NCBI GenBank assembly: GCA_038146805.1
Contig: JAYQSH010000003.1
Location: forward strand, 48,519-112,518
Source: a bacterium
GTDB lineage: Bacteria > Cyanobacteriota > Vampirovibrionia > LMEP-6097
Length of the DNA stretch: 64,000 nucleotides
Direction: 5' to 3'
In this document: positions 3,303-56,382 of the stretch, piece after piece
Layout of the letters: the number at the start of each line of letters is the position of its first letter
Position numbering within the stretch: position 1 is the stretch's first letter
Made by a program: the position numbers and the translations under genes
The notes under the pieces: generated by a model
The model's database searches: none
Told to the model about the DNA's origin: nothing
What the model saw: the letters and a program-made list of their open reading frames with translations, nothing else

Positions 3303-3536
3303 GGGCGTGCTTCCAAACCCGTAATAAGTATCTCGAGTCTTTAGATTTGGGCATAAGTAGGGTTTGGTTAGACACGCCTAACAAAAGAATCAAACACCGT
3401 CGCTTAGTGAGTTTCACGCAGTGAAACAAGCTAAGCGTAAGGTCGTTTGTGGGACTGATTTCTAACCCCATTTTCTAGTGATTTTAACATTTCACTGTAT
3501 TTTAAAATTCAAAATGGGGTTTGGAATCAGTCCCAT
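3303..3536 (+). repeat. 234-bp highly structured dispersed repeat, copy 1 (plus orientation)
   Basis: Near-identical copies at 18581..18814 (reverse) and 33755..34177 (interrupted by a MITE). Three extended hairpins: GGGCGTG..CACGCC, CGCTTAG-GTTTCAC-gcag-GTGAAAC-CTAAGCG, and GGGACTGATT..AATCAGTCCC. Confidence 0.85.
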
Positions 3537-3554: not shown

Positions 3555-3773
3555 TTAGGAGCTTATTGATCTTAGAGAATTTTTAATTTGTTGTTCAGAA
3601 CGCTGACTAGCACTGTAATTTCTTGAGGATTGCACTAGTTGATTTAGTGTTTGCTGGTCTTGTTGAGCAATTGTATCTGCAATGTTGATATTGTGAAAAA
3701 CATTATTGCCCCTCGCATCTCGAAAAGGATCATAAATTTCTGCAATTACTTTTTTTGTTTTAACTTCTTTCAT
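3555..3773 (-). CDS. hypothetical small protein (72 aa)
   Basis: ORF only; tandem with two further small minus-strand ORFs. Confidence 0.4.
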   Translation of the reverse strand: MKEVKTKKVIAEIYDPFRDARGNNVFHNINIADTIAQQDQQTLNQLVQSSRNYSASQRSEQQIKNSLRSISS

Positions 3774-3776
3774 TTT

Positions 3777-4178
3777 CTAGCTCACATTTGAAAACTCAGC
3801 AACTCTTGCGTTTGTAGCAAAAACCCACATCACGTTAATTTCATCTTGATAAGCTTTTTCATTTTCAGATCGAGTAGTGACCGTTTCTTTTAATTTAGCG
3901 CTTGCAGTTTGAGTCCATGCAGTATCACTTTTACTCAAATCTTGTACTATTGCAGCAACTGCTTGTCTAACTTCGGTAGAATTTTGAGGAGTAGAAGTTT
4001 GAGGAGTAGAATTTGCTTGAGAAGTACCAGGCAATGTTTCTGGAATTTTTGCTTGTTGTGGTTCTGTTACTTTTAATGCATCTACAGTTGAGCTTTTAAT
4101 TGAGCCAGAAGACTTTATGGGCTTTGGTGCACTTATTAATTTATTTGCTTCTACAGATTTATTTAGTTCTCCAGCCAT
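3777..4178 (-). CDS. hypothetical protein, S/T/Q-rich (133 aa)
   Basis: ORF, 3-nt spacing to downstream ORF, low-complexity N-terminal half. Confidence 0.45.
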   Translation of the reverse strand: MAGELNKSVEANKLISAPKPIKSSGSIKSSTVDALKVTEPQQAKIPETLPGTSQANSTPQTSTPQNSTEVRQAVAAIVQDLSKSDTAWTQTASAKLKETVTTRSENEKAYQDEINVMWVFATNARVAEFSNVS

Positions 4179-4322
4179 AAAAATTTCCTCTAACTATAAT
4201 GTGTCAGTTTTAAGTTAAGCTTTGGTTATAAAATCACTAAAAAAAGATTTTTTTTATGATAAATAATTAAAATTACTCAAGCTAATTTAAATAGAGCCTC
4301 AAGCAAGTCTAAATTTGAAGAA

Positions 4323-4742
4323 TTATACATTTGAAGATTCAGCAGCAAGTTTACCAATACCACTAAATAAATCGCCAATCGCTTTTGTAAAAACAACTAG
4401 ATTTTCAGCCGTTGCTTTTGCTGCATTTGCTGAACCTTCAATAGCAGCTCGATCACGAGCAGCATTAGCTGGACCATTCATAGCATCAAATTTTTCCGAA
4501 ATATTTGCTATTGCTTGACCCGGTGCAGATTGACCAAAGCTACTAAAAAAAGTAGGATTAAGCCCCATACCGGGACTCACAAAAGCTAAAAAATTAATTC
4601 CAGAACTTGAAGCACTTGGAGCACTTGCTTGGGCAGGTGTAGAGCTTGATGCAACATGATTAATTGACATAGCATAATCTCTATTGTTTGGTATTTTAGT
4701 ATCAAAAGACAAATCCATAACTATATACTTGCAAATATTCAT
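4323..4742 (-). CDS. hypothetical protein (139 aa; true start possibly the internal Met at MDLSF)
   Basis: ORF; Ala/Ser-rich; no recognisable domain. Confidence 0.45.
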   Translation of the reverse strand: MNICKYIVMDLSFDTKIPNNRDYAMSINHVASSSTPAQASAPSASSSGINFLAFVSPGMGLNPTFFSSFGQSAPGQAIANISEKFDAMNGPANAARDRAAIEGSANAAKATAENLVVFTKAIGDLFSGIGKLAAESSNV

Positions 4743-4766
4743 TAAGCTTGGGTTAAATATCTTTAT

Positions 4767-4800
4767 TAAGACACTTCGGACCGTGTTATTTTTGTCTCAC
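4767..4800 (+). repeat. REP unit (taagacacttcggaccgtgttatttttgtctcac) upstream of RAYT gene
   Basis: Same ~34-bp unit recurs at 5594..5664, 25191..25226, 34211..34243, 52511..52544, 53890..53962 and 55375..55408, in both orientations. Confidence 0.8.
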
Positions 4801-4871
4801 AATTAGGTGCTGCTAACAGTAGCTAGGTAGTTTCACTGAATTTTATTTGGCAAGCGCTAAGATAAATTCTT

Positions 4872-5591
4872 ATGCCAAGAAAAAACAGAAAATTATTCGC
4901 CGACGCTATTTACCATGTATATTCAAGGGGTAATTGCAAAAAAGAAATTTTTAAATCAGACAAAGACAACAAAATATTTTTAAAGATTTGCCAAGTTGCC
5001 GCAAAAAAATTCAATTTTGCAATTTTTTCTTATGCGCTCATGAAAAACCATTATCATCTTTTAATACAAACACCTGATGCAAACCTGCCGGAGATCATGT
5101 GCTTTATCAATCGAACATATGCAAATTACTTCAATAAAGAATATCAACAAGTAGGCTACGTTTTTCAAGGCAGATATAATGCCAAACTAGTTGACGATAA
5201 TGAATACTTGAGGACTTTAATTGCTTATATAAATCTTAACCCCTATGCCGCAAACATTGTCACTGAACCAAGTACATACAAATGGTCAAGTTGCAAAGAA
5301 CTATTAATGCAAAAAGACTTCAATGGTTTTTTGCATATTAACTATGTTTTAAAACTCACTGGAGATTTTGCCAGCTTTTTAGAGGCACACATCTACGATA
5401 AAAACTTAAAAATGGACTCAGAAATTTTTTACCTGACAAGCAAACTAAAATCACTTTTAAATTCAGACGCATTTGAAAAATTAAATAGCAAATCTCAGGT
5501 AAGAAAACTCAAAGAAGAATATAAGTTAACAGCAAAAGAAATAAGCTCGGTTATAAACTTGTCTAGAAGCAGTGTTTATAGATTAATCTAA
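4872..5591 (+). CDS. REP-associated tyrosine transposase (RAYT), IS200/IS605-type Y1 HUH enzyme with C-terminal HTH-like extension
   Basis: HUH motif HYHLL, catalytic-Tyr context FQGRYNAKLVDD, flanked on both sides by inverted REP units. Confidence 0.75.
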   Translation: MPRKNRKLFADAIYHVYSRGNCKKEIFKSDKDNKIFLKICQVAAKKFNFAIFSYALMKNHYHLLIQTPDANLPEIMCFINRTYANYFNKEYQQVGYVFQGRYNAKLVDDNEYLRTLIAYINLNPYAANIVTEPSTYKWSSCKELLMQKDFNGFLHINYVLKLTGDFASFLEAHIYDKNLKMDSEIFYLTSKLKSLLNSDAFEKLNSKSQVRKLKEEYKLTAKEISSVINLSRSSVYRLI

Positions 5592-5593
5592 TA

Positions 5594-5664
5594 AATGAGA
5601 CAAAAATAACCCGGTCCGAAGTGTCTTATAAATGAGACAAAAATGACACGGTCCGAAGTGTCTT
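5594..5664 (-). repeat. REP doublet (two tandem 34-bp units) downstream of RAYT, opposite orientation to the upstream unit
   Basis: aatgagacaaaaataacccggtccgaagtgtctta then aatgagacaaaaatgacacggtccgaagtgtctta. Confidence 0.8.
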
Positions 5665-5908
5665 AGTAGACAGAAACTAATTTTCTGCCACGTTTTTGTT
5701 CAAATTTTACTTTACCTTCAATAATTGAGTACAAAGTATCATCACGACCGCGACGCACATTGTTACCCGGGTGAAACTTAGTACCACGTTGACGAACGAT
5801 AATGTTACCAGCAATAACCACTTGACCGTCATAACGCTTAACTCCAAGTCTTTTAGACTCTGAATCTCTTCCGTTTTTAGTACTACCTACACCTTTTTTT
5901 GATGCCAT
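5663..5908 (-). CDS. rpmA: 50S ribosomal protein L27
   Basis: [25 protein letters not shown]...[11 protein letters not shown]; no N-terminal propeptide. Confidence 0.95.
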
Positions 5909-6329: not shown

Positions 6330-9300
6330 TTACGCTGACAGGTTCCATGAAGCCTCTCCTAATTGAACTTTCTCTTTTTGATTAGCAAGCATTATATCCA
6401 AAACATTTGTTGAAGAAAATGGATCTGCTTGTATCCACAAGTCTAATCCAGGTCCTACCGGAGCAGGTCTAGCTGGCGGTCGAGGTACAGCCGGTTCTTC
6501 TGCTTTAACTGGTGCTGGAGCAGGTATCTTAGCTCTTTGAGTTACTGCTTGATAATCATTTTCAAAAAGCTCTAAAAATCTTGCAAAAGAAGAAAGTGAC
6601 TTAGCAAATTCATCTCTTGAAATCATTGTTGTTAGTTGACTTTCTCTTCTTGTCAAATTCTCGTTACCAAAAACTAGATTTAAGTATTCAAACACTGATT
6701 GTTCATCAGCTGCTCTACCTAAGAAGCTCTCAGGATTTGATAGAGATTGAGGATAAGTCTCTCTCAAGAAAGTAGAGATTCTTGAACCTAATTCATTTTT
6801 AAATGCAGTAACATTTAAACTACCATCATTATTGATATAACCCGCTACATACAATCTATCTATGAACTCTTGCTCTGTCATATTTGGATTATATTCTTCA
6901 CCATAGTTATTAAATCTATTAATAAAGTCTGTAGCAGCTTGAGCATTAGCTCTTGCTTCAGAGCTATTATCGACAGGAACAACTTGCCCTCTTTCATTGG
7001 TGTTATAAAGTTCAGCGGCTGTTCTATTAGGATCATAAATCATGCCAAATCTGTATGCTAACTGCATAAGCTGTGAAAAATCACCATTAATATTGACTTC
7101 TCTTGTTTGTCTATCAACATCAAAACCAAGATTTTGCACCAAGCTATCTAAAGCTCTAGGATTAAGATCATATCTAACACTATGATCAGCTTCTTTAAAG
7201 GCTTTGTAAGGTTCATAAAATCGTAAATCTCTATCAGCAAAAGCTAAAAGTGAGTCAGATAGTCTTTCATCATTACTATTAATAAAATCCAATGCATCTC
7301 CATCAGCACTTCTTAATAGAGCATCAAAAACTCTAAATCTAGCTGCCATATCATCATCACCAGAGAAACTAATCTCTTCTAAATATTTTTCATAAGCATT
7401 GGCAAAAGCTCTATTATTAGGATCCATTAATTTTTCTCTAAAAGCTTTCATATCAAAATCTTGTGGTCTAACAAGATCAAAATCAAAAGCAGCATAACTT
7501 TTTAAATCTCTTGCAATACCAGGATCAACACTCTCTGCTTGTCTCATCTTAAAGAGTTGCATTAAAGCTCTTCTTTGAGCATCTATATCAGTAATCCCAG
7601 CTTTTGTTAAATCTTCAACTAAATCCTTATTCTTATCGATAATAGATGCTGGAATAGAATCAGATTGATATAACTGATAAAACTCTGTTAAATTCAAATC
7701 TAATTGATTCTTGTATTTGTCTTCAGCAAGAAGAGTATTAAGTTTTGCCATTTCAGCTTTTAAACCTAATCTATCAAACTCAAGTGCATCTAGATACATC
7801 AAACCAGCATTATCATTATCACTAGCACGAAACTCATTAGCAGCAGTAACTAAATCAGCGATATCACTATCAAAACTCTCTGGTAACTTACCAATAGAGC
7901 TAAGGTATTCTCTGATTTTAGTAAGTTTTCTATGATTAGGACTTTCACCTCTTGCAATCTGCAAGCCAATATCAGTGATTAAGTCATTTATATAATCAGA
8001 ACCTGAACCACTCATACCATCTGCAAAAGCAGCAAAAATTTTCATTGTCTCTGAACCACCAAGCTCTTGAGTTTCAGGTGGAATATTTAAACCTAGTGCA
8101 GCAATAATGCTATCAAAATTTGTATCTAAAGTTACTGCAACTTTAGAGATGTCCGTTTCAGCTAAAGAACCTACAATACTATCAATTGCAGATTTTACAG
8201 CCTCATCAGCAAGTTTGGTATCGATAGTAGCAACATCATGACCGTAAAGTGCTAATTTTGTTCTTAAAGCTTCGTCAATTCTGTCTCTAAGATCAGCTTC
8301 AGGATCAAGATCAGCTTCAGGATCAATATCTACGCCTTGTTGTTTTTGGTTAATTCTTTCAACAAGAATTCTTGAGATATAACCTTTAAGTGATTCATTT
8401 AGTCTATCATTTAATCTCGGTAATGAAGCCACTTGCTCTTGATAAGTTGTTTGAGAAAGACTCATTTGATGAATAGTTCTCTTTAATGTCTCTACACCCT
8501 CTGCATAGATAGCTTTTGCTTCATCAATAGCCTTATCAACACTAACTTGAGCTCTAGAACGAAGTTGAGTTTTAATCTCATCCATCTTTATATTTTCAGA
8601 TTTAGTATAGTTTTCAAGCTTTCTAACTTTAACATCAGCAGGTTTAGAATGATCATACTCAACAGCATTAACAACCCACTGATTATTATCAGCATCATGT
8701 TGTTTTACAACTGTCGTAGTTTTATCATTATCAATATATCGATAGACTTTGTATTGATTTATATCAAAATCCTCAGCTTCAACATTGATACCCATAGTTT
8801 TAAGAAGTTTAGTTTTTTTATCACCTGTTATTTCTACATCATGATTAATTAATCCAGTAGTAAAAGTAGCAGTACCAGCAGCAGTTAAAATAGCTATTTT
8901 ATCTGCTTCTGCTGCTGTATCAATAATACCTACTCTTATCACATCCATTAATTGAGCTAGTTCTTCTTCAGTGATTTTTTCACCACCATCGCTATTTGCC
9001 TCACAAAAACCATCTGCTCCAGTAGCACCTGCATAAATTAACTTTTTGAGATTGGTCTTAGTAGCATCATCAAACGAAGAAATTAAACAATGAAGGACAT
9101 TATTTCTTTCTTTCCAAGCTTGCATTAAATCTGCTGAATATCTCATTGAAGATTCGTAATCATTGTTATCAAAAACAGCAAAAATCTCTTCTAACTGTTT
9201 TACTCTCTCTTCAAAATTCTGAGCAGTAGTTCCTGCTGTCTTCACCTCAGAATAAAGAGACTTATCAACAACTGCATCATTATATGTTTTTGTGCTAGAA

Positions 9301-9962
9301 TTATATTCACCATTGTTATAAGTAAAGAACTGCATATCAGCAGCTCTAAGTTTAGGATTAAATACTCTTATAAAATCAACAAATTCTTGTACTCTTGCTT
9401 TCTTGTCTTTTGGTTCAGCAGTGCTAATCGCATCAGAGAGAGTCTTACGATGAGCTTGTAACATCTCCGTAATCTCATCTCTAACATTATCAACCATCCC
9501 TGATTTAGACTCATCAAAAAGAGTTAAAACTTGTGCCATCTGTCTTGGATCAGATACTCTTGTTAAAGATCCGTTTGTAACCAGTTCATCAACATCACCA
9601 CGAAGATCAGCTAGGGTAAGATCATACTCTGATCTTGCACCATTATCACTAGTATAAATGTTACTTGTTTTGTATACTTCAATCTTACCTTCACCGTTTA
9701 ACCTAATTCTTAAACCGAAAGTTGGATTTGCGTACCTATCACCTTCTTCAAAAACTAAAATAAAATCATTATCTGCAAGTTGATCAACTCGAATTTTGTC
9801 ATCATCGCTATAGTTCGTATACCACTGATCTAGAAACTCTGTTTTAGGAACTTCATCATTAGGACCAGCGTATAAAGTATCTACTAATTGTGTCACTCTT
9901 TGAGGTAAATTTGTTGTTTGATTTGCATAGATCGAAGCTGAATTAATATCGTTCATATACAT
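6330..9962 (-). CDS. very large hypothetical acidic protein (1210 aa) with internal DLDPEA tandem repeat and Pro-rich C-terminus
   Basis: Long uninterrupted ORF with normal codon periodicity; no recognised catalytic motif; repeat DLDPEADLDPEADL near 8291..8336; C-terminus PAPAPVKAEEPAVPRPPARPAPVGPG. Confidence 0.7.
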   Translation of the reverse strand: MYMNDINSASIYANQTTNLPQRVTQLVDTLYAGPNDEVPKTEFLDQWYTNYSDDDKIRVDQLADNDFILVFEEGDRYANPTFGLRIRLNGEGKIEVYKTSNIYTSDNGARSEYDLTLADLRGDVDELVTNGSLTRVSDPRQMAQVLTLFDESKSGMVDNVRDEITEMLQAHRKTLSDAISTAEPKDKKARVQEFVDFIRVFNPKLRAADMQFFTYNNGEYNSSTKTYNDAVVDKSLYSEVKTAGTTAQNFEERVKQLEEIFAVFDNNDYESSMRYSADLMQAWKERNNVLHCLISSFDDATKTNLKKLIYAGATGADGFCEANSDGGEKITEEELAQLMDVIRVGIIDTAAEADKIAILTAAGTATFTTGLINHDVEITGDKKTKLLKTMGINVEAEDFDINQYKVYRYIDNDKTTTVVKQHDADNNQWVVNAVEYDHSKPADVKVRKLENYTKSENIKMDEIKTQLRSRAQVSVDKAIDEAKAIYAEGVETLKRTIHQMSLSQTTYQEQVASLPRLNDRLNESLKGYISRILVERINQKQQGVDIDPEADLDPEADLRDRIDEALRTKLALYGHDVATIDTKLADEAVKSAIDSIVGSLAETDISKVAVTLDTNFDSIIAALGLNIPPETQELGGSETMKIFAAFADGMSGSGSDYINDLITDIGLQIARGESPNHRKLTKIREYLSSIGKLPESFDSDIADLVTAANEFRASDNDNAGLMYLDALEFDRLGLKAEMAKLNTLLAEDKYKNQLDLNLTEFYQLYQSDSIPASIIDKNKDLVEDLTKAGITDIDAQRRALMQLFKMRQAESVDPGIARDLKSYAAFDFDLVRPQDFDMKAFREKLMDPNNRAFANAYEKYLEEISFSGDDDMAARFRVFDALLRSADGDALDFINSNDERLSDSLLAFADRDLRFYEPYKAFKEADHSVRYDLNPRALDSLVQNLGFDVDRQTREVNINGDFSQLMQLAYRFGMIYDPNRTAAELYNTNERGQVVPVDNSSEARANAQAATDFINRFNNYGEEYNPNMTEQEFIDRLYVAGYINNDGSLNVTAFKNELGSRISTFLRETYPQSLSNPESFLGRAADEQSVFEYLNLVFGNENLTRRESQLTTMISRDEFAKSLSSFARFLELFENDYQAVTQRAKIPAPAPVKAEEPAVPRPPARPAPVGPGLDLWIQADPFSSTNVLDIMLANQKEKVQLGEASWNLSA

Positions 9963-20373: not shown

Positions 20374-20555
20374 TAAACTGATGCTCTAAACTCCACCTGA
20401 ATCTTATAAAAGCCTTTAAAACAAAGATATATTAAGAGTTTTTTGATACATACAGTGCCATACTGTAAATACAAAATAAAATCATCAAAAGTCTTTTAGT
20501 TATATTGGTTTTTTGAAGATTTATATTTTCAGGTGGAGTTTAGAGCATCAGTTTG
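20374..20555. mobile_element. MITE (~182 bp) carrying the IS1-family terminal inverted repeats taaactgatgctctaaactccacctg / caggtggagtttagagcatcagttt
   Basis: Same termini as the transposase-bearing IS at 22878..23919; internal sequence ~90% identical to the copy at 53971..54152. Confidence 0.85.
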
Positions 20556-22115: not shown

Positions 22116-22886
22116 TTGAAAAAACAGCCGCATTTAATTTTAATTTTATTGATACTTTTTTTAAGTAGCCAATCTCTACATGCCAAATTTTGTGAAACAA
22201 TAAACGAAGCGGATTTGTGCTTGAACAGTCTTTTAGAGCATAAACTTTTTGATTCTTCAGCAAAATTACACGCAAATTATTTGCCAATACTTGCTTTAAG
22301 AGCACTCGCTCACGCTGATATCTATAAAAAGAAAAAAGATTTTAAAATTGAAAGATTTTTTTTTGAGAATGATAAAGTTTATGAAAAAGATACAGACGAG
22401 CTTCCATACGCAAGTTTAATCGGTGTTGGCAAAGTTTCAGGCAATGGTTTTTTTGGTAGAGAAGTTGAATTCGCAGGCACTTTAAACGCACATACAGTCA
22501 AATACAAAAACGTAATGAAATTTAGTTTGCCGCGCAGAGCTGACATGCAAGTAAATGCTTGGCTTGATGAAATTGAGTTTTTAGATTTACAAATTCAAAG
22601 TGATGCAGACAAAATGACCAATGATGTAAGTGGTAAATATTTTGGTAAAGCTGTAAAGTACCATACTGCACACAGAGATAGTTTTGGTATCCTCGCTGAT
22701 ATCCCTTACAAATTACACACAGAAGGTAAAGTAAAAGAAGATGATTTATTTCATGCAGTTACTGATGGATTGATAGACGAAAACAAAGTAACTGGAGCTG
22801 TCAATTTTATAGAAAAAAATCATTACTACTCTATTGAGCATTATGGACCAATTAGAGTTGAAACTCATATAAGAATCTTAAACTGA
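22116..22886 (+). CDS. secreted hypothetical protein (signal peptide MKKQPHLILILLILFLSSQSLHA); stop codon supplied by the IS terminus
   Basis: ORF ends in TGA inside the IS left terminal repeat (aaactgatg). Confidence 0.55.
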   Translation: MKKQPHLILILLILFLSSQSLHAKFCETINEADLCLNSLLEHKLFDSSAKLHANYLPILALRALAHADIYKKKKDFKIERFFFENDKVYEKDTDELPYASLIGVGKVSGNGFFGREVEFAGTLNAHTVKYKNVMKFSLPRRADMQVNAWLDEIEFLDLQIQSDADKMTNDVSGKYFGKAVKYHTAHRDSFGILADIPYKLHTEGKVKEDDLFHAVTDGLIDENKVTGAVNFIEKNHYYSIEHYGPIRVETHIRILN

Positions 22887-23919
22887 TGCTCTAAACTCCA
22901 CCTAAGCCAAAAATCTCATACTAAAAAACCACGTAAAGAAATCTCCTCATTATCAATCACCATATTATGAAAACAAGCATAAATATGCATTAAATGTTCA
23001 AGATTGACAATCTTTTTTGTGGTGCACCAAGTTTTACGACTGAGCCTTTTTACATTGTCGCGAAACATAGCGGCACTATGATTCAAGCTAAAAAGTGGAT
23101 CCCAACCAGTTGCCTTGAGCTCACCTTGCCCCACGACACAGCCACGTCTCCCTTTGTATGACAGTGTTGTAGCGCCTGCGAAAAATTCTTGAATGAGCGC
23201 AGGGTAATGCCAAGATTTATCAGAAATAAATAGCGTTAATTTGTTACAACAAGCTTGAAGTTCACTAAACATTTTGCGCAGTGTTTTTTTGCGCTCACAA
23301 CTACGTGCGCCATATTTTTTCTTGGCAATTTCAGCCAAATGCCCTTTAGCGCGAATTTTGCCAACGTTTACGCTTAATATTTTTCTGCTTTGCATTTCAA
23401 CGGCAATTGCCATTGTCAAAGGCTTACACTTAGTGTGTTCAAAGCTTTCCATTTCATCAAAAACCAAATCTGTAATCGGCGGGATTTCTTCGCGGGATTT
23501 GGCTAATTTTTTTCTTGCACATAAACCCAAGCGCACTAATCTTCTAGAAATTGTGCGAGGTACGACGCTTAGCACAAGCGCACAAGCCCGCTCCGAAAGC
23601 CCTTTGCAGAGTAGCTTAAAGCATGATTTATTGATAAGTCTTTTTTGTAATCGGTAATCAAACCTAAGTGTCTGCTCAGAAAAATTTTTATTACAGCTTT
23701 TACAAAAAAATCTTTGTATGATTTTTCTATCTGACTTTCTAATATGTGTGCCTTTTTTGATGACTTTTTCTCTGTTTTTACAGCAGGGCATGGGTATTGT
23801 TTCATTTTGAATCCTCCAAGTACAAAATATTAGACAATACTTGACTTTTTATGGGGGGTCAAAAGGCTTTTTTTGATGCTAATTAGGTTTTATTAGGTGG
23901 AGTTTAGAGCAGCAGTTAA
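22878..23919 (-). mobile_element. IS1-family insertion sequence (~1.04 kb) with 26-bp terminal inverted repeats
   Basis: TIRs ttaaactgatgctctaaactccacct (22878..22903) and aggtggagtttagagcagcagttaa (23894..23919) bracket a single transposase ORF. Confidence 0.85.
22916..23791 (-). CDS. IS1-family transposase (single-ORF InsAB-like)
   Basis: N-terminal zinc-finger CKNREK...CKSCNKNF then an HTH (LSERACALVLSVVPRTISRRL) then a DDE-like region; architecture matches IS1 InsA-InsB. Confidence 0.8.
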   Translation of the reverse strand: MPCCKNREKVIKKGTHIRKSDRKIIQRFFCKSCNKNFSEQTLRFDYRLQKRLINKSCFKLLCKGLSERACALVLSVVPRTISRRLVRLGLCARKKLAKSREEIPPITDLVFDEMESFEHTKCKPLTMAIAVEMQSRKILSVNVGKIRAKGHLAEIAKKKYGARSCERKKTLRKMFSELQACCNKLTLFISDKSWHYPALIQEFFAGATTLSYKGRRGCVVGQGELKATGWDPLFSLNHSAAMFRDNVKRLSRKTWCTTKKIVNLEHLMHIYACFHNMVIDNEEISLRGFLV

Positions 23920-25190: not shown

Positions 25191-25226
25191 CTTGAGACAC
25201 TGCGGACCGTGTCATTTTTGTCCTAT
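25191..25226 (+). repeat. REP unit (variant gagacactgcggaccgtgtcatttttgtcctat)
   Basis: Member of the RAYT-associated REP family. Confidence 0.7.
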
Positions 25227-25298: not shown

Positions 25299-25484
25299 TT
25301 AAACTGCTGCTCTAAACTCCACCTGACTAGTTAAAAACTATTGTAAATAGTGTGTTTTGCAGAGTTTTTTTAGGAGATAGTCAGGTGCTTATGTAATTAC
25401 AAAATAATAATCCCTTAAATTCAAATATTGTAAGGCTTTTTTTTTGATTTTTTATTTTCAGGTGGAGTTTAAAGCATCAGTTTA
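25299..25484. mobile_element. MITE (~186 bp) with IS1-family TIRs
   Basis: ttaaactgctgctctaaactccacctg ... caggtggagtttaaagcatcagttta. Confidence 0.8.
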
Positions 25485-31246: not shown

Positions 31247-31265
31247 TATTGAGCGAAATTAAAAA

Positions 31266-31692
31266 AATGAGTTAATAATAAGCCGGGTTCTGTATGGCTT
31301 GCGCCATTAACTATCATCTATCTGGACCTAAGCATTACTGCTAGGTTCATGCGGAATTCACAGACCCAAAAAGTATACGAGTAATTCCTTTTTGGTTAAG
31401 CCTGCTTACCTTGCAGCTTCAGCGGGGTTTACCGAGCCTAAGCTTCTCAACTTAGCTGGTGAGCCCTTACCTCACCTTTACACCCTTACCTTTGTGACAC
31501 CGAACTTTGATTTAAGACCAAAGATGCTAAAGCAAAGTTCGATATCACAATTCATCCTTGCGGATTAAGGCGGTATTTTTCTGTGGCACTATCCTCACGT
31601 TCACACGTACTGGCAATTAACCAGCAACCTACACTCATATACTGCCCGGACTTTCCTCTCAAAAAATTGAGCGATAGTCTAATTAACTCAAA
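31266..31692 (-). ncRNA. rnpB: RNase P RNA, bacterial type A
   Basis: Reverse strand carries GAGGAAAGTCCGGGC (P4), AGTGCCACAGAAAAATACCGCC, AAGGTAAGGGTGTAAAGGTGAGGTAAGGGCTCACCAGC, GGTAAACCCCGCTGAAGC and the 3' ACAGAACCCGGCTTAT. P1 pairs GAGTTAAT (31682..31689) with ATTAACTC (31269..31276). GC content is well above the surroundings. Confidence 0.88.
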
Positions 31693-33754: not shown

Positions 33755-34177
33755 GGGCGTGCTTCCAAACCCGTAATAAGTATCTCGAGTCTTTAGATTT
33801 GGGCATAAGTAGGGTTTGGTTAGACACGCCTAACAAAAGAATCAAACACCGCCGCTTAGTGAGTTTCACGCAGTGAAACAAGCTAAGCCTAAGGTCGTTT
33901 GTGGGACTGATTTCTGACCCCATTTGCTAGTGATTTTAACATTTCACTGTATTTTAAAATTCACTAACTGATGCTCTAAACTCCACCTGGAAATATAAAT
34001 CTTCAAAAAACCTATATAAATAAAAGACTTTTGACAATTTTATTTTGTATTTAGCGTGGCGCTACATGAATCAAAAAAGTCATAAAATACCATTGTTTTA
34101 AAGGCTTTTATAAGATTCAGGTGGAGTTTAGAGCATCAGTTAGTAAAATTCAAAATGGGGTTTGGAATCAGTCCCAT
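33755..34177 (+). repeat. 234-bp structured repeat, copy 3, split by a MITE insertion (33964..34143) with 9-bp target duplication taaaattca
   Basis: 33755..33963 matches the 5' 200 bp of the element, 34153..34177 matches the last 25 bp; taaaattca is present on both sides of the MITE. Confidence 0.85.
33964..34143. mobile_element. MITE (~180 bp) with IS1-family TIRs, inserted into repeat copy 3
   Basis: ctaactgatgctctaaactccacctg ... caggtggagtttagagcatcagttag; internal sequence is the reverse complement of the 20374/53971 MITEs. Confidence 0.85.
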
Positions 34178-34208: not shown

Positions 34209-34685
34209 TCATGAGACAAAATCAACACGGTCCGCAGTGTCGCATTGTCTGAAAGCTTCATAGAACACTGTTTGCACAGTACTTGCCAAATTTAAACTGC
34301 GTGAGTTTTTTGAGCGCATCGGCACAGTAATAGCTTGCTCTTGAAATTCATCTAATAATGCTTGTGGTAACCCTCTTGTTTCTGGACCAAAAACCAAAAA
34401 ATCATTTTTTTGATATTCCACATGCCAAAAACTTTTTTTTGCTTTTGTTGTCAGTAACCAAAACCTTGCTTCTGGATTTTGTGTCAAAAAATCTTGCCAA
34501 TTTTCATATAACTTAAGTTCTAGATATTGCCAGTAGTCTAAAGCTGAGCGCTTTAGGTATTTGTCTGATATTTCAAAACCCAAGGGCTTTATCAAATGTA
34601 AAACCAAATCATTAGAGACACACATGCGAGCAATATTGCCTGTGTTTTGCGGTATTTCTGGTTGGTATAAAACAATATTTATCAT
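34209..34685 (-). CDS. trmL: tRNA (cytidine/uridine-2'-O)-methyltransferase, SpoU/TrmL type
   Basis: 158 aa; MINIVLYQPEIPQNTGNIARMC...FGPETRGLP; SPOUT family. Confidence 0.78.
   Translation of the reverse strand: MINIVLYQPEIPQNTGNIARMCVSNDLVLHLIKPLGFEISDKYLKRSALDYWQYLELKLYENWQDFLTQNPEARFWLLTTKAKKSFWHVEYQKNDFLVFGPETRGLPQALLDEFQEQAITVPMRSKNSRSLNLASTVQTVFYEAFRQCDTADRVDFVS
34211..34243 (-). repeat. REP unit
   Basis: atgagacaaaatcaacacggtccgcagtgtcgc. Confidence 0.7.
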
Positions 34686-52510: not shown

Positions 52511-52544
52511 CATGAGACAAAATCAACACGGTCCGAAGTGTCTT
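52511..52544 (-). repeat. REP unit flanked by a 32-bp direct repeat (52465..52496 and 52545..52576)
   Basis: catgagacaaaatcaacacggtccgaagtgtctt; direct repeat gcagttatcgggatttgttaacactagctaag on both sides. Confidence 0.75.
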
Positions 52545-52623
52545 GCAGTTATCGGGATTTGTTAACACTAGCTAAGGACTCACTAAAGAACTATCTATTT
52601 CGTTATATAATAGTAAAAATATC

Positions 52624-53892
52624 ATGCTAGATATTAAACTTATTAGAAAAGACCCTGAATTTGTCAAAGCGCAAGTTGCAAGAAGAAATGCAGATTTAGT
52701 TGCTGAAATTGAAGCCTTAATTGAACTTGATCTTGAACATCGAAACGAATTACAAATAAAAGAAAATCTTGAAGCACAAAAAAATAAACTTTCAAAAGAA
52801 GTTGGCTTTAAAAAATCAAAAGGTGAAAATGCTGACTCGGAAATAACAGAGCTTAATGAAATCAAAGAAAAATTAAAAGCAATTGCTGACAAAGAACCTG
52901 AATTATTTGCAAAACAAAAAGCTATCCTAGAAAGAATTCCAAATTTACCAGCTTTAGAAATTCCAGATGGCAAAGACGAAGAAGCGAACCAAGAAGTTTA
53001 TAGAAATTTCCCAGCTAAAGAATTTTCTTTTGCAACAAAAGACCACGATGAAATTGGAAGAGAACTTGGACTTTTTGATTTTGAAAGAGGTGTCAAGATT
53101 GCAAAAAGCAGATTTACACTGCTTACTGGTTACGGTGCAAAGCTGGAAAGAGCTCTAATTAATTTTATGCTTGATCTAGCTACCCAAAATGGTTATAGCG
53201 AAATCATGCCACCAATTTTAGTAAACTCAGATTCACTTTATGGCACCGGTCAATTACCAAAATTTGCAGAAGATCTTTTTAAAGTGGCTGACTCAAATTT
53301 ATATTTGATTCCAACAGCAGAGGTACCTTTAACAAATATTTATCGAGATGAAATTTTATCAAGCGATCAATTGCCAATGCACTTGTGTGCTTATACGCCA
53401 AACTTTCGCTCAGAAGCTGGGGCTGCCTCAAAAGACACTAGAGGTATTATTCGCCAACACCAATTTAATAAAGTTGAGCTGGTAACAATTTGTAGTCCAG
53501 AACAAAGTGCAGAACTTCATGAAAAATTAACGCAAAACGCTGAAGCAATACTGCAAGCATTGGCTTTGCCGTATCGCAAAATGTTACTCTGTGCAGGTGA
53601 CATGGGTTTTTCAGCACATAAATGTTATGACCTAGAAGTTTGGTTTGCGGGACAAGGCAAATATAGAGAGATTTCGTCTTGCTCAAATTTTGCTGATTTT
53701 CAAGCGCGCAGAGCGCAAATCCGCTTTAAACGTGATGCAAAAGCAAAAGCCGAATTGGTGCATACAATAAATGGTTCAGGGCTTGCTGTTGGCAGAACTC
53801 TTGCAGCAATTCTAGAATACTACCAAAACGAAGATGGCAGTGTTACAGTCCCCGAAGTTTTAAGAGCCTACGGACTTCCTGAAAAACTATAA
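52624..53892 (+). CDS. serS: seryl-tRNA synthetase
   Basis: N-terminal coiled-coil arm then class II core (..FRSEAGAASKDTRGIIRQHQFNKVE.. motif 2, ..GSGLAVGRTLAAILE.. motif 3). Confidence 0.95.
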   Translation: MLDIKLIRKDPEFVKAQVARRNADLVAEIEALIELDLEHRNELQIKENLEAQKNKLSKEVGFKKSKGENADSEITELNEIKEKLKAIADKEPELFAKQKAILERIPNLPALEIPDGKDEEANQEVYRNFPAKEFSFATKDHDEIGRELGLFDFERGVKIAKSRFTLLTGYGAKLERALINFMLDLATQNGYSEIMPPILVNSDSLYGTGQLPKFAEDLFKVADSNLYLIPTAEVPLTNIYRDEILSSDQLPMHLCAYTPNFRSEAGAASKDTRGIIRQHQFNKVELVTICSPEQSAELHEKLTQNAEAILQALALPYRKMLLCAGDMGFSAHKCYDLEVWFAGQGKYREISSCSNFADFQARRAQIRFKRDAKAKAELVHTINGSGLAVGRTLAAILEYYQNEDGSVTVPEVLRAYGLPEKL

Positions 53893-53962
53893 GACACTTC
53901 GGACCGTGTCATTTTTGTCTCATTTATAAGACACTTCGGACCGTGTCATTTTTGTCTCATTT
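53890..53962 (+). repeat. REP doublet (two tandem 36-bp units taagacacttcggaccgtgtcatttttgtctcattta)
   Basis: Overlaps the serS stop codon. Confidence 0.8.
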
Positions 53963-53970
53963 ATGATTTT

Positions 53971-54152
53971 TAAACTGATGCTCTAAACTCCACCTGAATC
54001 TTATAAAAGCCTTTAAAACAATGATATTTTAAGACTTTTTTGATTCATATAGCGCCACGCTGTAAATACAAAATAAAATTGTCAAAAGTCTTTTAGTTAT
54101 ATAGGTTTTTTGAAGATTTATATTTCCAGGTGGAGTTTAGAGCATCAGTTAG
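53971..54152. mobile_element. MITE (~182 bp) with IS1-family TIRs
   Basis: Nearly identical to the copy at 20374..20555. Confidence 0.85.
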
Positions 54153-55374: not shown

Positions 55375-55408
55375 GTGAGACAAATTTAACACGGTCCGAA
55401 GTGTCTTA
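55375..55408 (-). repeat. REP unit
   Basis: gagacaaatttaacacggtccgaagtgtctta; preceded by a degenerate IS-TIR-like fragment aactgatgacctaaatcagcc. Confidence 0.7.
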
Positions 55409-56149
55409 AATATTGATTGTGACGGGAGCTTCTTTTGAAATTGCAATTAAAAGAGACCTTATTGCGGCAATCATTTCAATTTCAGTTTCAAGTTTATTGA
55501 CATACTTACCAACACCAATGCCATTAGCACCAGAAGCTATCGCAAGTTTTGCAGTATCAGGAGTGATACCTGAAGCTGTTAGTAAAAATGTGTTTTCTAA
55601 TACTCTTGCAATTTCAATTGTGTTAGCAAGTGTAAGTTTTACTTTTTCGATTTGCCCAAGCGCAGCAGCAGAATTTGCTTCAACCAAAGACGCACCCTCC
55701 GTTTGAATAATATCAATTCCAAGCAACTCTAATTTTTGAGCTAATTCTACTTGATCCTTAACAGATAAATGACCCGGAACTGTAATAGATACTAACGCAT
55801 TAGGTCTAAAATTTATAATCTCAACAGCTAAACTATAAATCTCATCAGCACTATAAAAAATTCCTTGTTTGTGCAAAGCTTCATAATTACCAAGTTCAAG
55901 AACTGCAACACCTAAATCATCAGCTGCTTTTAATTTTTTTACGTCGACAGAAGAAACACACAAATTTATAGTGAATTCTTCTTTGAGTTTTTCAATAATA
56001 GCTGCATCATCACAGATGTCAACTAAGTCAGCACCAGCAATTTGAGCACTTTGAACAATTTTTCTAACTTTTTGATAATCATAGTTATCAATACCAGAAA
56101 TAACTTTAAGTAATTTATTTCTATCTAACAAATCTATTAAATCTCTCAT
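55406..56149 (-). CDS. TIM-barrel fold protein of unknown function (247 aa)
   Basis: Alternating beta-alpha pattern with Gly-rich phosphate-binding-like C-terminal turns (ASGANGIGVG); no secure family assignment. Confidence 0.5.
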   Translation of the reverse strand: MRDLIDLLDRNKLLKVISGIDNYDYQKVRKIVQSAQIAGADLVDICDDAAIIEKLKEEFTINLCVSSVDVKKLKAADDLGVAVLELGNYEALHKQGIFYSADEIYSLAVEIINFRPNALVSITVPGHLSVKDQVELAQKLELLGIDIIQTEGASLVEANSAAALGQIEKVKLTLANTIEIARVLENTFLLTASGITPDTAKLAIASGANGIGVGKYVNKLETEIEMIAAIRSLLIAISKEAPVTINI

Positions 56150-56197: not shown

Positions 56198-56382
56198 TAA
56201 ACTGATGCCCTAAACTCCACCTGAAAATAAAATCAATAAAAAAAACCCTACAATACCTGAATTTAAGGGACTTTTATTTTGTAATTACACAACCCCCCCA
56301 ACTATCTTCTAAATAAACTCTGTAAAACTCTTTATTTTCAATAGTTTTCAACTATTTAGGTGGAGTTTAGGGCAGCAGTTTG
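56198..56382. mobile_element. MITE (~185 bp) with slightly diverged IS1-family TIRs
   Basis: taaactgatgccctaaactccacctg ... taggtggagtttagggcagcagtttg. Confidence 0.8.

Follow-up and report, generated by a model that had tools for sequence, protein, structure and literature searches.

A RAYT-like HUH/Y1 nuclease gene between inverted copies of a dispersed extragenic repeat in a vampirovibrionian bacterium resembles the TIRtron arrangement

We analysed a 64,000-nt stretch of DNA (hereafter the window; contig JAYQSH010000003.1 of GenBank assembly GCA_038146805.1, positions 48,519 to 112,518) from a bacterium of the lineage LMEP-6097 (Cyanobacteriota; Vampirovibrionia), in which an HUH/Y1 nuclease gene lies between inverted copies of a 33-nt repeat unit that recurs elsewhere in the window. 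A first-pass annotation had described this locus as a classic system of a repetitive extragenic palindromic (REP)-associated tyrosine transposase (RAYT) and its REPINs. The window holds nine unit copies at seven loci, against a chance expectation of 0; a search with a 29-nt core, allowing at most 3 mismatches, gave 8 matches in the window and 0 in 100 dinucleotide-preserving shuffles. The gene and the units, in window coordinates, are as follows.

4872..5591, plus strand: HUH/Y1 nuclease gene, ATG start, 239 aa, with H60, H62, Y119 and N123 and a helix-turn-helix (HTH)-like tail at about residues 206-238
4767..4799, plus strand: left flanking unit, TAAGACACTTCGGACCGTGTTATTTTTGTCTCA, 72 nt before the start codon, with its TAAG end directed outward from the gene
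5596..5628, minus strand: right flanking unit, inner copy of a direct doublet, inverted relative to the left unit and beginning 5 nt past the gene's stop codon
5633..5665, minus strand: right flanking unit, outer copy; the convergent gene for ribosomal protein L27 terminates on its first triplet, TAA (5663-5665, minus)
25193..25225, plus strand: solo unit, TGA-tagged, with 4-5 mismatches, between divergent gene starts; a miniature inverted-repeat transposable element (MITE) of IS1-like type lies 77 nt downstream
34212..34244, minus strand: solo degenerate unit with TGC as first triplet, encoding the last 11 codons of a SpoU-type methylase open reading frame (ORF; 34209..34685, minus strand)
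52513..52545, minus strand: solo unit in the region between serS and an RNA methyltransferase gene, which start divergently
53890..53959, plus strand: direct tandem doublet (units at 53890-53922 and 53927-53959); serS terminates on its first TAA, and its orientation is opposite to that of the doublet at 5596-5665
55376..55408, minus strand: solo unit; a DUF561 gene (55406..56149) terminates on its TAA

Three units thus lie within 105 nt of the nuclease gene in an inverted arrangement. The repeat positions listed in the first-pass annotation were real and accurate to within 0-2 nt, and its description of a gene bracketed by one unit upstream and two downstream agrees with ours. The downstream pair, which it called an inverted tandem doublet, is inverted only relative to the upstream unit; both doublets are direct 37-nt tandems with no REPIN-type hairpin. 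It had also placed the units always between genes at 3' ends. This is the case for the L27, serS and DUF561 genes, in each of which a unit triplet provides the stop codon, and not for the units at 4767, 25193 and 52513, which lie between divergent starts, or for the unit at 34212, inside the SpoU ORF.

The nuclease gene is, as first annotated, a plus-strand ORF of 239 aa with an ATG start, and the HUH motif reported as HYHLL is H60-Y61-H62 within NHYHLL, invariant in 15 homologues. The expected Pfam domain, Y1_Tnp (PF01797), matched residues 12-121 of the 239-aa protein with 55 bits against a cutoff of 23. In NCBIfam, the top family was REP_Tyr_transpos (NF047646) at 59.1 bits, under the 80-bit RAYT equivalog cutoff, and transpos_IS200 scored 21.3 bits, not reaching its cutoff of 55. 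An alignment of the 15 homologues showed H60, Y61, H62, Y119, N123 and S140 to be invariant and P124, W138 and S139 nearly so. Y102, the tyrosine of the QGRY sequence previously proposed as the catalytic context, is replaced by phenylalanine in several of these homologues. The active site of E. coli TnpA_REP comprises H59/H61, Y115 and N119 (PMC3479197), and a Y---NP signature is common to all class-2 TnpA_Y1 proteins (PMC6006769). Because Y119 and N123 are invariant and match both Y115/N119 of TnpA_REP and the class-2 signature, the predicted catalytic tyrosine is Y119, in YINLNP (Y119-I-N-L-N123-P124).

An AlphaFold2 model built from the alignment had a mean pLDDT of 90.4. Its top match in the Protein Data Bank (PDB) by Foldseek was 4ER8, the REP-bound E. 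coli TnpA_REP (E = 3e-7, TM 0.73, 160/165 residues), and the IS608, ISDra2 and IS200 transposases ranked behind it. A phmmer search with the nuclease against PDB sequences recovered no Y1 enzyme; the fold search alone did. Modelled structure and alignment together show the enzyme fold and an intact RAYT-like active site, and the protein shares with class-2 TnpA_Y1 proteins both the Y---NP signature and a structure nearer to TnpA_REP than to the transposases of insertion sequences (ISs). Beyond the core, residues 141-238 form a helical extension with three short terminal helices (206-217, 221-228 and 232-238) that are modelled with confidence. Many HTH families of Pfam match residues 210-239 weakly (E = 0.02-0.3), and the C-terminal HTH of homologues is recognised as Bac_DnaA_C (PF08299), HTH_23, HTH_28, HTH_38 or sigma-70 region 4. 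W138-S139-S140 is a conserved Ser motif downstream of the catalytic tyrosine, which is a criterion of TnpA_REP subclass 2.1. The protein had been noted as unusually long with an HTH-like tail; the C-terminal helical tail is there, and the length is not unusual, being part of the normal subclass 2.1 architecture (PMC6006769, PMC3733652).

The 33-nt repeat unit is TAAGACACTTCGGACCGTGTYATTTTTGTCTCA. For a unit of 42% GC, in a window of 34.2% GC, and with a stem of 5 bp, the first description as a GC-rich imperfect palindrome says too much. Its self-complementarity consists of a single stem (GACAC/GTGTY) with an 8-nt loop, and its folding as single-stranded DNA (-1.3 kcal/mol) is no more stable than that of shuffled sequences (z = 0.26). 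The stem shows no compensatory changes, variation being restricted to G:C to G:T at positions 4/21, and a possible outer pairing of positions 2/32 showed no significant covariation. We rejected a hairpin or palindrome reading, as single units and doublets did no better than shuffles (z = 0.26, 0.15, -1.9 and -1.2). The units carry no GTAG tag, their tag being T-R-R-G; the motif GGGGWSAS is not in the consensus, and no Rfam family matched at the units at gathering thresholds. The stem followed by ATTTTTGT corresponds to a minimal intrinsic-terminator pattern. Both doublets in the window are head-to-tail copies with a 37-nt period, and the repeating element of the pair downstream of the nuclease gene is the unit plus TTTA.

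To follow the unit beyond the window, we scanned metagenome contigs with a 27-nt degenerate pattern, which retrieved 49 DNA stretches, all from a few salt-marsh samples. The census comprised these stretches, the window and contigs that encode the identical protein, and it gave 146 unit occurrences, 86 of them non-redundant, at no fewer than 51 distinct loci. In a search of genome contigs with the 17-nt core GACACTKCGGACCGKGT, the matches listed were single chance matches in unrelated, mostly high-GC genomes. Among the 86 non-redundant copies there is almost no variation at positions 4-9, 11-20 and 25-31; it falls mostly at positions 2-3, 10, 21-24 and 32. Part of the conservation of positions 4-30 stems from the pattern with which most contigs were retrieved. 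Solo units or direct arrays account for 44/51 loci: 26 solo units, 11 direct doublets, 3 triplets, 2 quadruplets, 1 quintuplet and one array of at least 7 units that reaches a contig end. The minority form, at the remaining seven loci (6 inverted pairs and one mixed locus), includes an inverted pair. Direct neighbours are spaced by 37 nt in 33/35 cases, and the 4-nt linker is uniform within an array and variable between arrays (TTTA/TTTT, CGAC, TTAT, TGTT).

The orientation pairing expected of REPINs is found at 7/51 population loci and not in the window's doublets, which are direct; the only inverted pair in the window is the one that brackets the nuclease gene. In all seven inverted pairs the TAAG ends point outward, as in the units that flank the gene, and complementarity runs about 10-17 nt past the unit, giving arms of about 43-50 nt and loops of 0-105 nt. 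These pairs are REPIN- or MITE-like members of the unit family, and without containing a gene they mimic the configuration of the gene's own flanks.

The units are also extragenic and oriented. Of the 86 non-redundant copies, 84 lie outside ORFs of at least 90 aa, in DNA of which a crude caller assigned about 82% as coding, and the other two are cases in which an ORF reads through a unit at its extreme 3' end. Where the surrounding genes run in one direction, units are co-oriented with transcription in 21 cases vs 4, counts in which array members are not independent. The first triplet of the unit is a stop codon in 77/86 copies (TAA 54, TGA 17, TAG 6), and TGG in this position is not significantly depleted. 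At 13 of 59 first or solo units, an upstream ORF of 60 codons or more actually terminates on the unit's first triplet; the other two frames give 2 such cases each. We rejected targeting of stop codons as an explanation, as such coincidence concerns about 22% of loci and is explicable by the frequency of TAA in intergenic DNA of 34% GC. Five independent short-read assemblies each yielded a Logan contig of about 1.35-1.4 kb (L151-L155) that contains serS only and ends at the flanking unit positions; because all five stop there, the units act as assembly breakpoints in these contigs.

Units also coincide with rearrangements. A block comprising lpg, the M23 peptidase gene, dxr, small ORFs and the nuclease gene is inverted relative to four relatives, and opposed unit arrays lie at both of its junctions (in the population contig L001, 4585-4765 on the plus strand, 5 units, with 5163-5232 on the minus strand, 2 units, and 10725-10794). 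In contig L005 (JGI 3300061870), the nuclease gene and its doublet are joined to the 3' end of serS (compare window 4500-5663 and 52556-53964). This junction is what a 48-kb inversion between the doublets at 5596-5665 and 53890-53959 would produce, and may have arisen in that way; it is supported by one contig and may also be an assembly chimera. Array length varies among population contigs, with 3 units in L002 vs 5 in L001, and 1 vs 2 at the site of the solo unit at 55376, where contigs L128 and L133 carry a doublet. At this site the extra unit matches the consensus instead of duplicating its neighbour; the same outcome would be expected from insertion of such a unit and from a deletion recombining in the shared first 20 nt.

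The nuclease gene is present once in the window, and in a 5.8-billion-sequence database the protein has one close cluster, at 98% identity, with the next homologue at 45%. Positional orthologues, 42-52% identical, occur in five related lineages, adjoining the same three small ORFs and dxr. For P0004, P0005, P0006 and P0007, the gene is divergent from the three small ORFs, which are followed by dxr and then the M23 peptidase gene, and the neighbouring L27, L21, Dxr and M23 proteins are 72-93% identical between these genomes. Because proteins of 42-52% identity occupy the same chromosomal position among neighbours of 72-93%, comparison of the sequences indicates that the gene is a fast-evolving positional orthologue and not a recent arrival; it looks single-copy and vertically inherited. 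A homologue in another genomic context (P0002) was also found. A tblastn search of plasmids returned distant matches only, at no more than 43% identity and annotated as 'transposase'. We discarded a dN/dS estimate for the gene, as the contigs had been fetched by exact protein identity and the resulting all-synonymous differences (3-7 nt) are biased by construction.

Every orthologue with readable flanking DNA has an inverted repeat of its own: 24 nt at 100% identity around the orthologue in L093, a strongly palindromic unit of 33-37 nt in L095, 28 nt at 96% in L147, and 40 nt at 100% in the non-syntenic L097. The downstream arm overlaps the 3' end of the gene in L093, L095 and L147. These repeats differ from one another in sequence but have in common TTAAG at the outer end and a CGGWC(C) core, often with a T-run; the L097 repeat has only GGGGAATT where the motif GGGGWSAS might be compared. 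The relatives' repeats were not found in the window, nor was the window unit found in L156, the one relative locus scanned. On a 664-kb scaffold of a relative, a solo copy of that lineage's own repeat lies 40 kb away and overlaps the stop codon of a MazG gene, and the sites orthologous to three window units are empty. Dispersal therefore occurs in relatives too and is denser in the window lineage (6 extra loci in 64 kb vs 1 in the roughly 42 kb sampled). Across these lineages the gene keeps its position while nuclease and flanking repeat vary together, and the distinct flanking repeat of each orthologue supports domestication and co-evolution.

Several further features of the window and its relatives were recorded. 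The three small ORFs divergent from the nuclease gene (72, 133 and 139 aa; 3555-4742, minus strand) have no significant Pfam match; they keep their position in all related lineages yet are 26-51% identical, compared with 72-93% for the neighbours. Beyond the L21 gene, a 1210-aa ORF (6330-9962, minus strand) also lacks a significant Pfam match and is essentially unalignable between lineages. In the relative represented by L093 (3026-5310) and L094, a tandem duplication of about 1.1 kb (86-98% identical) includes L27, so that L094 has two L27 genes. A GC-rich palindromic intergenic repeat with CATTGCGAG / CTCGCAATGACA is present in relatives (L095 8454-8569; L093 3026-3075 and 4210-4259) and is unrelated to the repeats that flank the nuclease gene. 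The closest named serS homologues come from metagenome-assembled genomes of Melainabacteria/Cyanobacteriota (69-73% identity), and an LptF/G gene points to a diderm host. Judged by this single serS marker, the host probably belongs to a cyanobacterial lineage without photosynthesis, of Melainabacteria type. In the Rfam scan at gathering level, the sole match in the window was the bacterial class A RNase P RNA (31264-31690, minus strand, 213 bits), and no tRNA was detected.

The window also carries two other mobile families. Five MITEs of about 178-181 bp (20376-20553, 25302-25482, 33966-34141, 53973-54150 and 56200-56380) have 24-nt inverted repeats, AACTGATGCTCTAAACTCCACCTG, and three of them lie within about 100 nt of a Y1 unit. 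A 1037-bp element with the same ends (22881-23917) encloses a 290-aa ORF (22916..23791, minus strand) that has no Pfam match and a sub-threshold NCBIfam match to the IS1 family (E = 7e-13, 49 of 100 bits); judged by these ends and this match, the element is probably the autonomous parent of the MITEs. An 84-bp palindromic element with arms GGGACTGATTYCNAACCCCATTTT occurs at 3451-3534, 18583-18666 and 33903...34175. The last copy (33903-34175) is split by the MITE at 33966-34141, a nested insertion, and the first lies inside a 233-bp stretch (3303-3535) that is missing from the otherwise 99%-identical contig L001.

We think it fairly probable that the locus is a domesticated 'TIRtron', in which an HTH-bearing RAYT-like nuclease gene lies between inverted copies of its own unit and the nuclease spreads the units. 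That the nuclease mobilises the units we infer by analogy with characterised relatives. It would bind the unit, probably via the TTAAG ... CGGWCC ... T-run elements common to the clade, with the HTH adding sequence-specific contacts; the hairpin would be dispensable because the HTH would supply this recognition. A nick at the TAAG boundary of the unit would be made through Y119, as IS608 TnpA and E. coli TnpA_REP do (PMC3479197, PMC6006769), and units or unit-X-unit cassettes would be copied to new extragenic sites on single-stranded DNA. Arrays would then grow mainly by local amplification, inverted arrays would recombine and so promote inversions, and units would be kept where they are harmless or useful, bringing a stop codon and a weak terminator made of a minimal hairpin and T-run.

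Several observations weigh against this proposal. Known Y1 enzymes recognise hairpins, and the unit forms none of significant stability. Among overlapping contigs we sought pairs of filled and empty sites and found array copy-number differences alone, which can arise by unequal recombination or slippage. Because the linker is constant within arrays and different between them, the evidence points to local amplification of arrays rather than to serial insertion. Beyond the window the census is biased, its contigs having been fetched with a pattern derived from the unit. Single-copy status was seen in the window and in protein clusters, not on a complete genome, and the HTH call for the window protein draws on weak Pfam matches (E = 0.02-0.3), the structural model and the homologues.

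In an alternative that we consider unlikely, the nuclease no longer spreads the units, which are now modules kept by the host, each a stop codon with a weak terminator or a site bound by a protein, and which multiply through gene conversion, slippage and unequal crossing-over. The HTH protein would then serve a different purpose, perhaps in regulation, or in recombination or repair at the units. In-situ amplification is what the homogeneous linkers within arrays and different linkers between them suggest, copy-number changes are the only polymorphisms seen, and the unit has the attributes of such a module: a minimal terminator pattern of 5-bp stem and ATTTTTGT tail, a stop codon as first triplet in 77/86 copies, a real gene stop at 13/59 loci vs 2 and 2 in the other frames, and co-orientation with transcription in 21 cases vs 4. 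Slippage, however, cannot seed 26 solo loci at unrelated extragenic sites, and the sites orthologous to three window units are empty in the relative. The catalytic residues are invariant across the family, and the matching repeat that each orthologue has of its own is hard to explain without a relationship of enzyme and substrate.

We regard as quite improbable the idea that the 0.9-kb cassette of unit, gene and unit is an active autonomous IS of the IS200/IS605 superfamily, with the solo units and pairs as MITEs or as remnants of its decay. A transposase-like gene between inverted terminal repeats, together with gene-less pairs in the same orientation, is a MITE-like arrangement; the identical protein lies beside serS, not L27, in contig L005; and the homologue P0002 has a different genomic context. 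Yet there is one gene copy in the window and one close cluster in the 5.8-billion-sequence database, and the place of the gene on the chromosome is unchanged across five lineages between which its housekeeping neighbours differ by 7-28%. The L005 junction, moreover, matches an inversion between the doublets at 5596-5665 and 53890-53959, and transpos_IS200 scored 21 bits against its cutoff of 55. Finally, mobilisation of the units by another enzyme, or an incidental flanking of the gene in a repeat-rich genome, is suggested by the IS1-like MITEs and the 84-bp palindromic element, which often adjoin units, and is most improbable given the specific inverted arrangement of three units within 105 nt of the gene, its recurrence in four relatives with sequences particular to each lineage, and the unrelated terminal repeats of the MITE and 84-bp families.

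Few bacterial mobile elements are maintained by vertical descent over long periods, and domesticated transposases of the RAYT type, with their repeats, belong to these few. What is known of their mechanism was learned almost entirely in E. coli and Pseudomonas, whose systems have GTAG hairpins. Although common, the HTH-bearing branch is essentially unstudied, and TIRYTs, as its RAYT-like genes with terminal inverted repeats are called, are mentioned in only two papers of the literature searched. To our knowledge, subclass 2.1, to which TIRYTs correspond, is the second largest subclass and has no known function. The locus described here ties an HTH-bearing protein to a dense and structured family of solo units, fixed-register arrays and gene-less inverted pairs, and the syntenic orthologues with their diverged flanking repeats add comparative power. 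If the proposed relationship of enzyme and unit is correct, the HTH-bearing branch also drives repeat dispersal, and would do so by recognising largely unstructured sequence. A broader reading, possible in our view and rather doubtful as a whole, is that this branch actively disperses non-palindromic units that are read by sequence (TTAAG, CGGWCC, T-run) via the HTH and not by hairpin shape, and that the units have been co-opted as stop-plus-terminator cassettes and inversion hotspots. Should recognition by sequence be true, the orthologues would form a natural specificity-swap series. On the practical side, metagenome assemblies are interrupted by units at gene boundaries, and units are also found where inversions join.

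The relation of the locus to known systems was judged by features of sequence and structure. What stood of the first-pass description as a RAYT-REPIN system is a Y1 nuclease of the RAYT branch bracketed by inverted, dispersed and extragenic units. The label 'classic' did not stand, given the NCBIfam score of 59.1 vs 80 bits, the lack of GTAG, the lack of a significant hairpin and the direct doublets. The protein resembles E. coli TnpA_REP (Ton-Hoang 2012, Messing 2012) in its best structural match (4ER8) and in the geometry of the HUH and Y---N active site, and the locus resembles the E. coli REPtron in having the gene between inverted cognate repeats that are extragenic and dispersed. The E. 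coli protein, however, has 165 aa and no HTH, and its similarity to the window protein is undetectable by phmmer; E. coli REPs are GTAG-tagged imperfect hairpins in bacterial interspersed mosaic elements (BIMEs) of alternating orientation, whereas the window units have a weak hairpin and form direct arrays.

With the REPIN-RAYT systems of Pseudomonas (Bertels & Rainey 2011; PMC5581495), the locus has in common an apparently single-copy, vertically inherited, transposase-derived gene and abundant copies of its flanking sequence, some of which are paired in inverted orientation and capable of long hairpins (7 loci, arms of about 43-50 nt). It differs in having solo units or direct arrays at 44/51 loci and, in the window, doublets that do not qualify as REPINs. 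Its protein is a member of the HTH-bearing branch and probably of Group 1 in the scheme of Bertels, for which an association with abundant 16-mers was reported to be absent; abundant flanking 16-mers were found for RAYT groups 2 and 3 only (PMC5581495). The likeness to IS608 and ISDra2 lies in the HUH/Y1 fold and catalytic residues and in the presumed single-strand nicking and strand transfer at short specific sequences. Those elements, in contrast, are multi-copy, have distinct subterminal left and right hairpins and no inverted terminal repeats, and encode dimeric transposases of about 130-155 aa.

The locus fits the TIRYT or 'TIRtron' arrangement, TnpA_REP subclass 2.1, better than the classical RAYT-REPIN one, as far as sequence features allow such an assignment. 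TIRtrons are RAYT-like genes with terminal inverted repeats (TIRs) and no GTAG hairpins, whose repeats sometimes overlap the 3' end of the gene and in some genomes form families of singles, dimers and groups, and GGGGWSAS occurs in the majority of described TIRs, not in all (PMC3733652). TIRYTs correspond to TnpA_REP subclass 2.1, especially 2.1.2, with C-terminal domains like Bac_DnaA_C, HTH_23 or HTH_28 (PMC6006769). Here, too, a RAYT-like Y1 protein with a putative C-terminal HTH is flanked by inverted units without GTAG hairpins, as are its relatives in L093, L095, L097 and L147; the 3' repeat overlaps the end of the gene in relatives, and singles, doublets and arrays are all present. The differences are that the unit lacks GGGGWSAS and has the outer tag TAAG here and TTAAG across the clade, and that the window is dense, with 9 units in 64 kb, and the family forms direct arrays, regularly spaced at 37 nt, of which the longest has at least 7 units. 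The window gene is also flanked by units of a dispersed family, whereas no REP-like repeats were reported near subclass 2.1 genes (PMC6006769). The locus is neither a classical RAYT-REPIN system nor a new category; it is a new, unusually clear and dense case of a known, barely studied arrangement.

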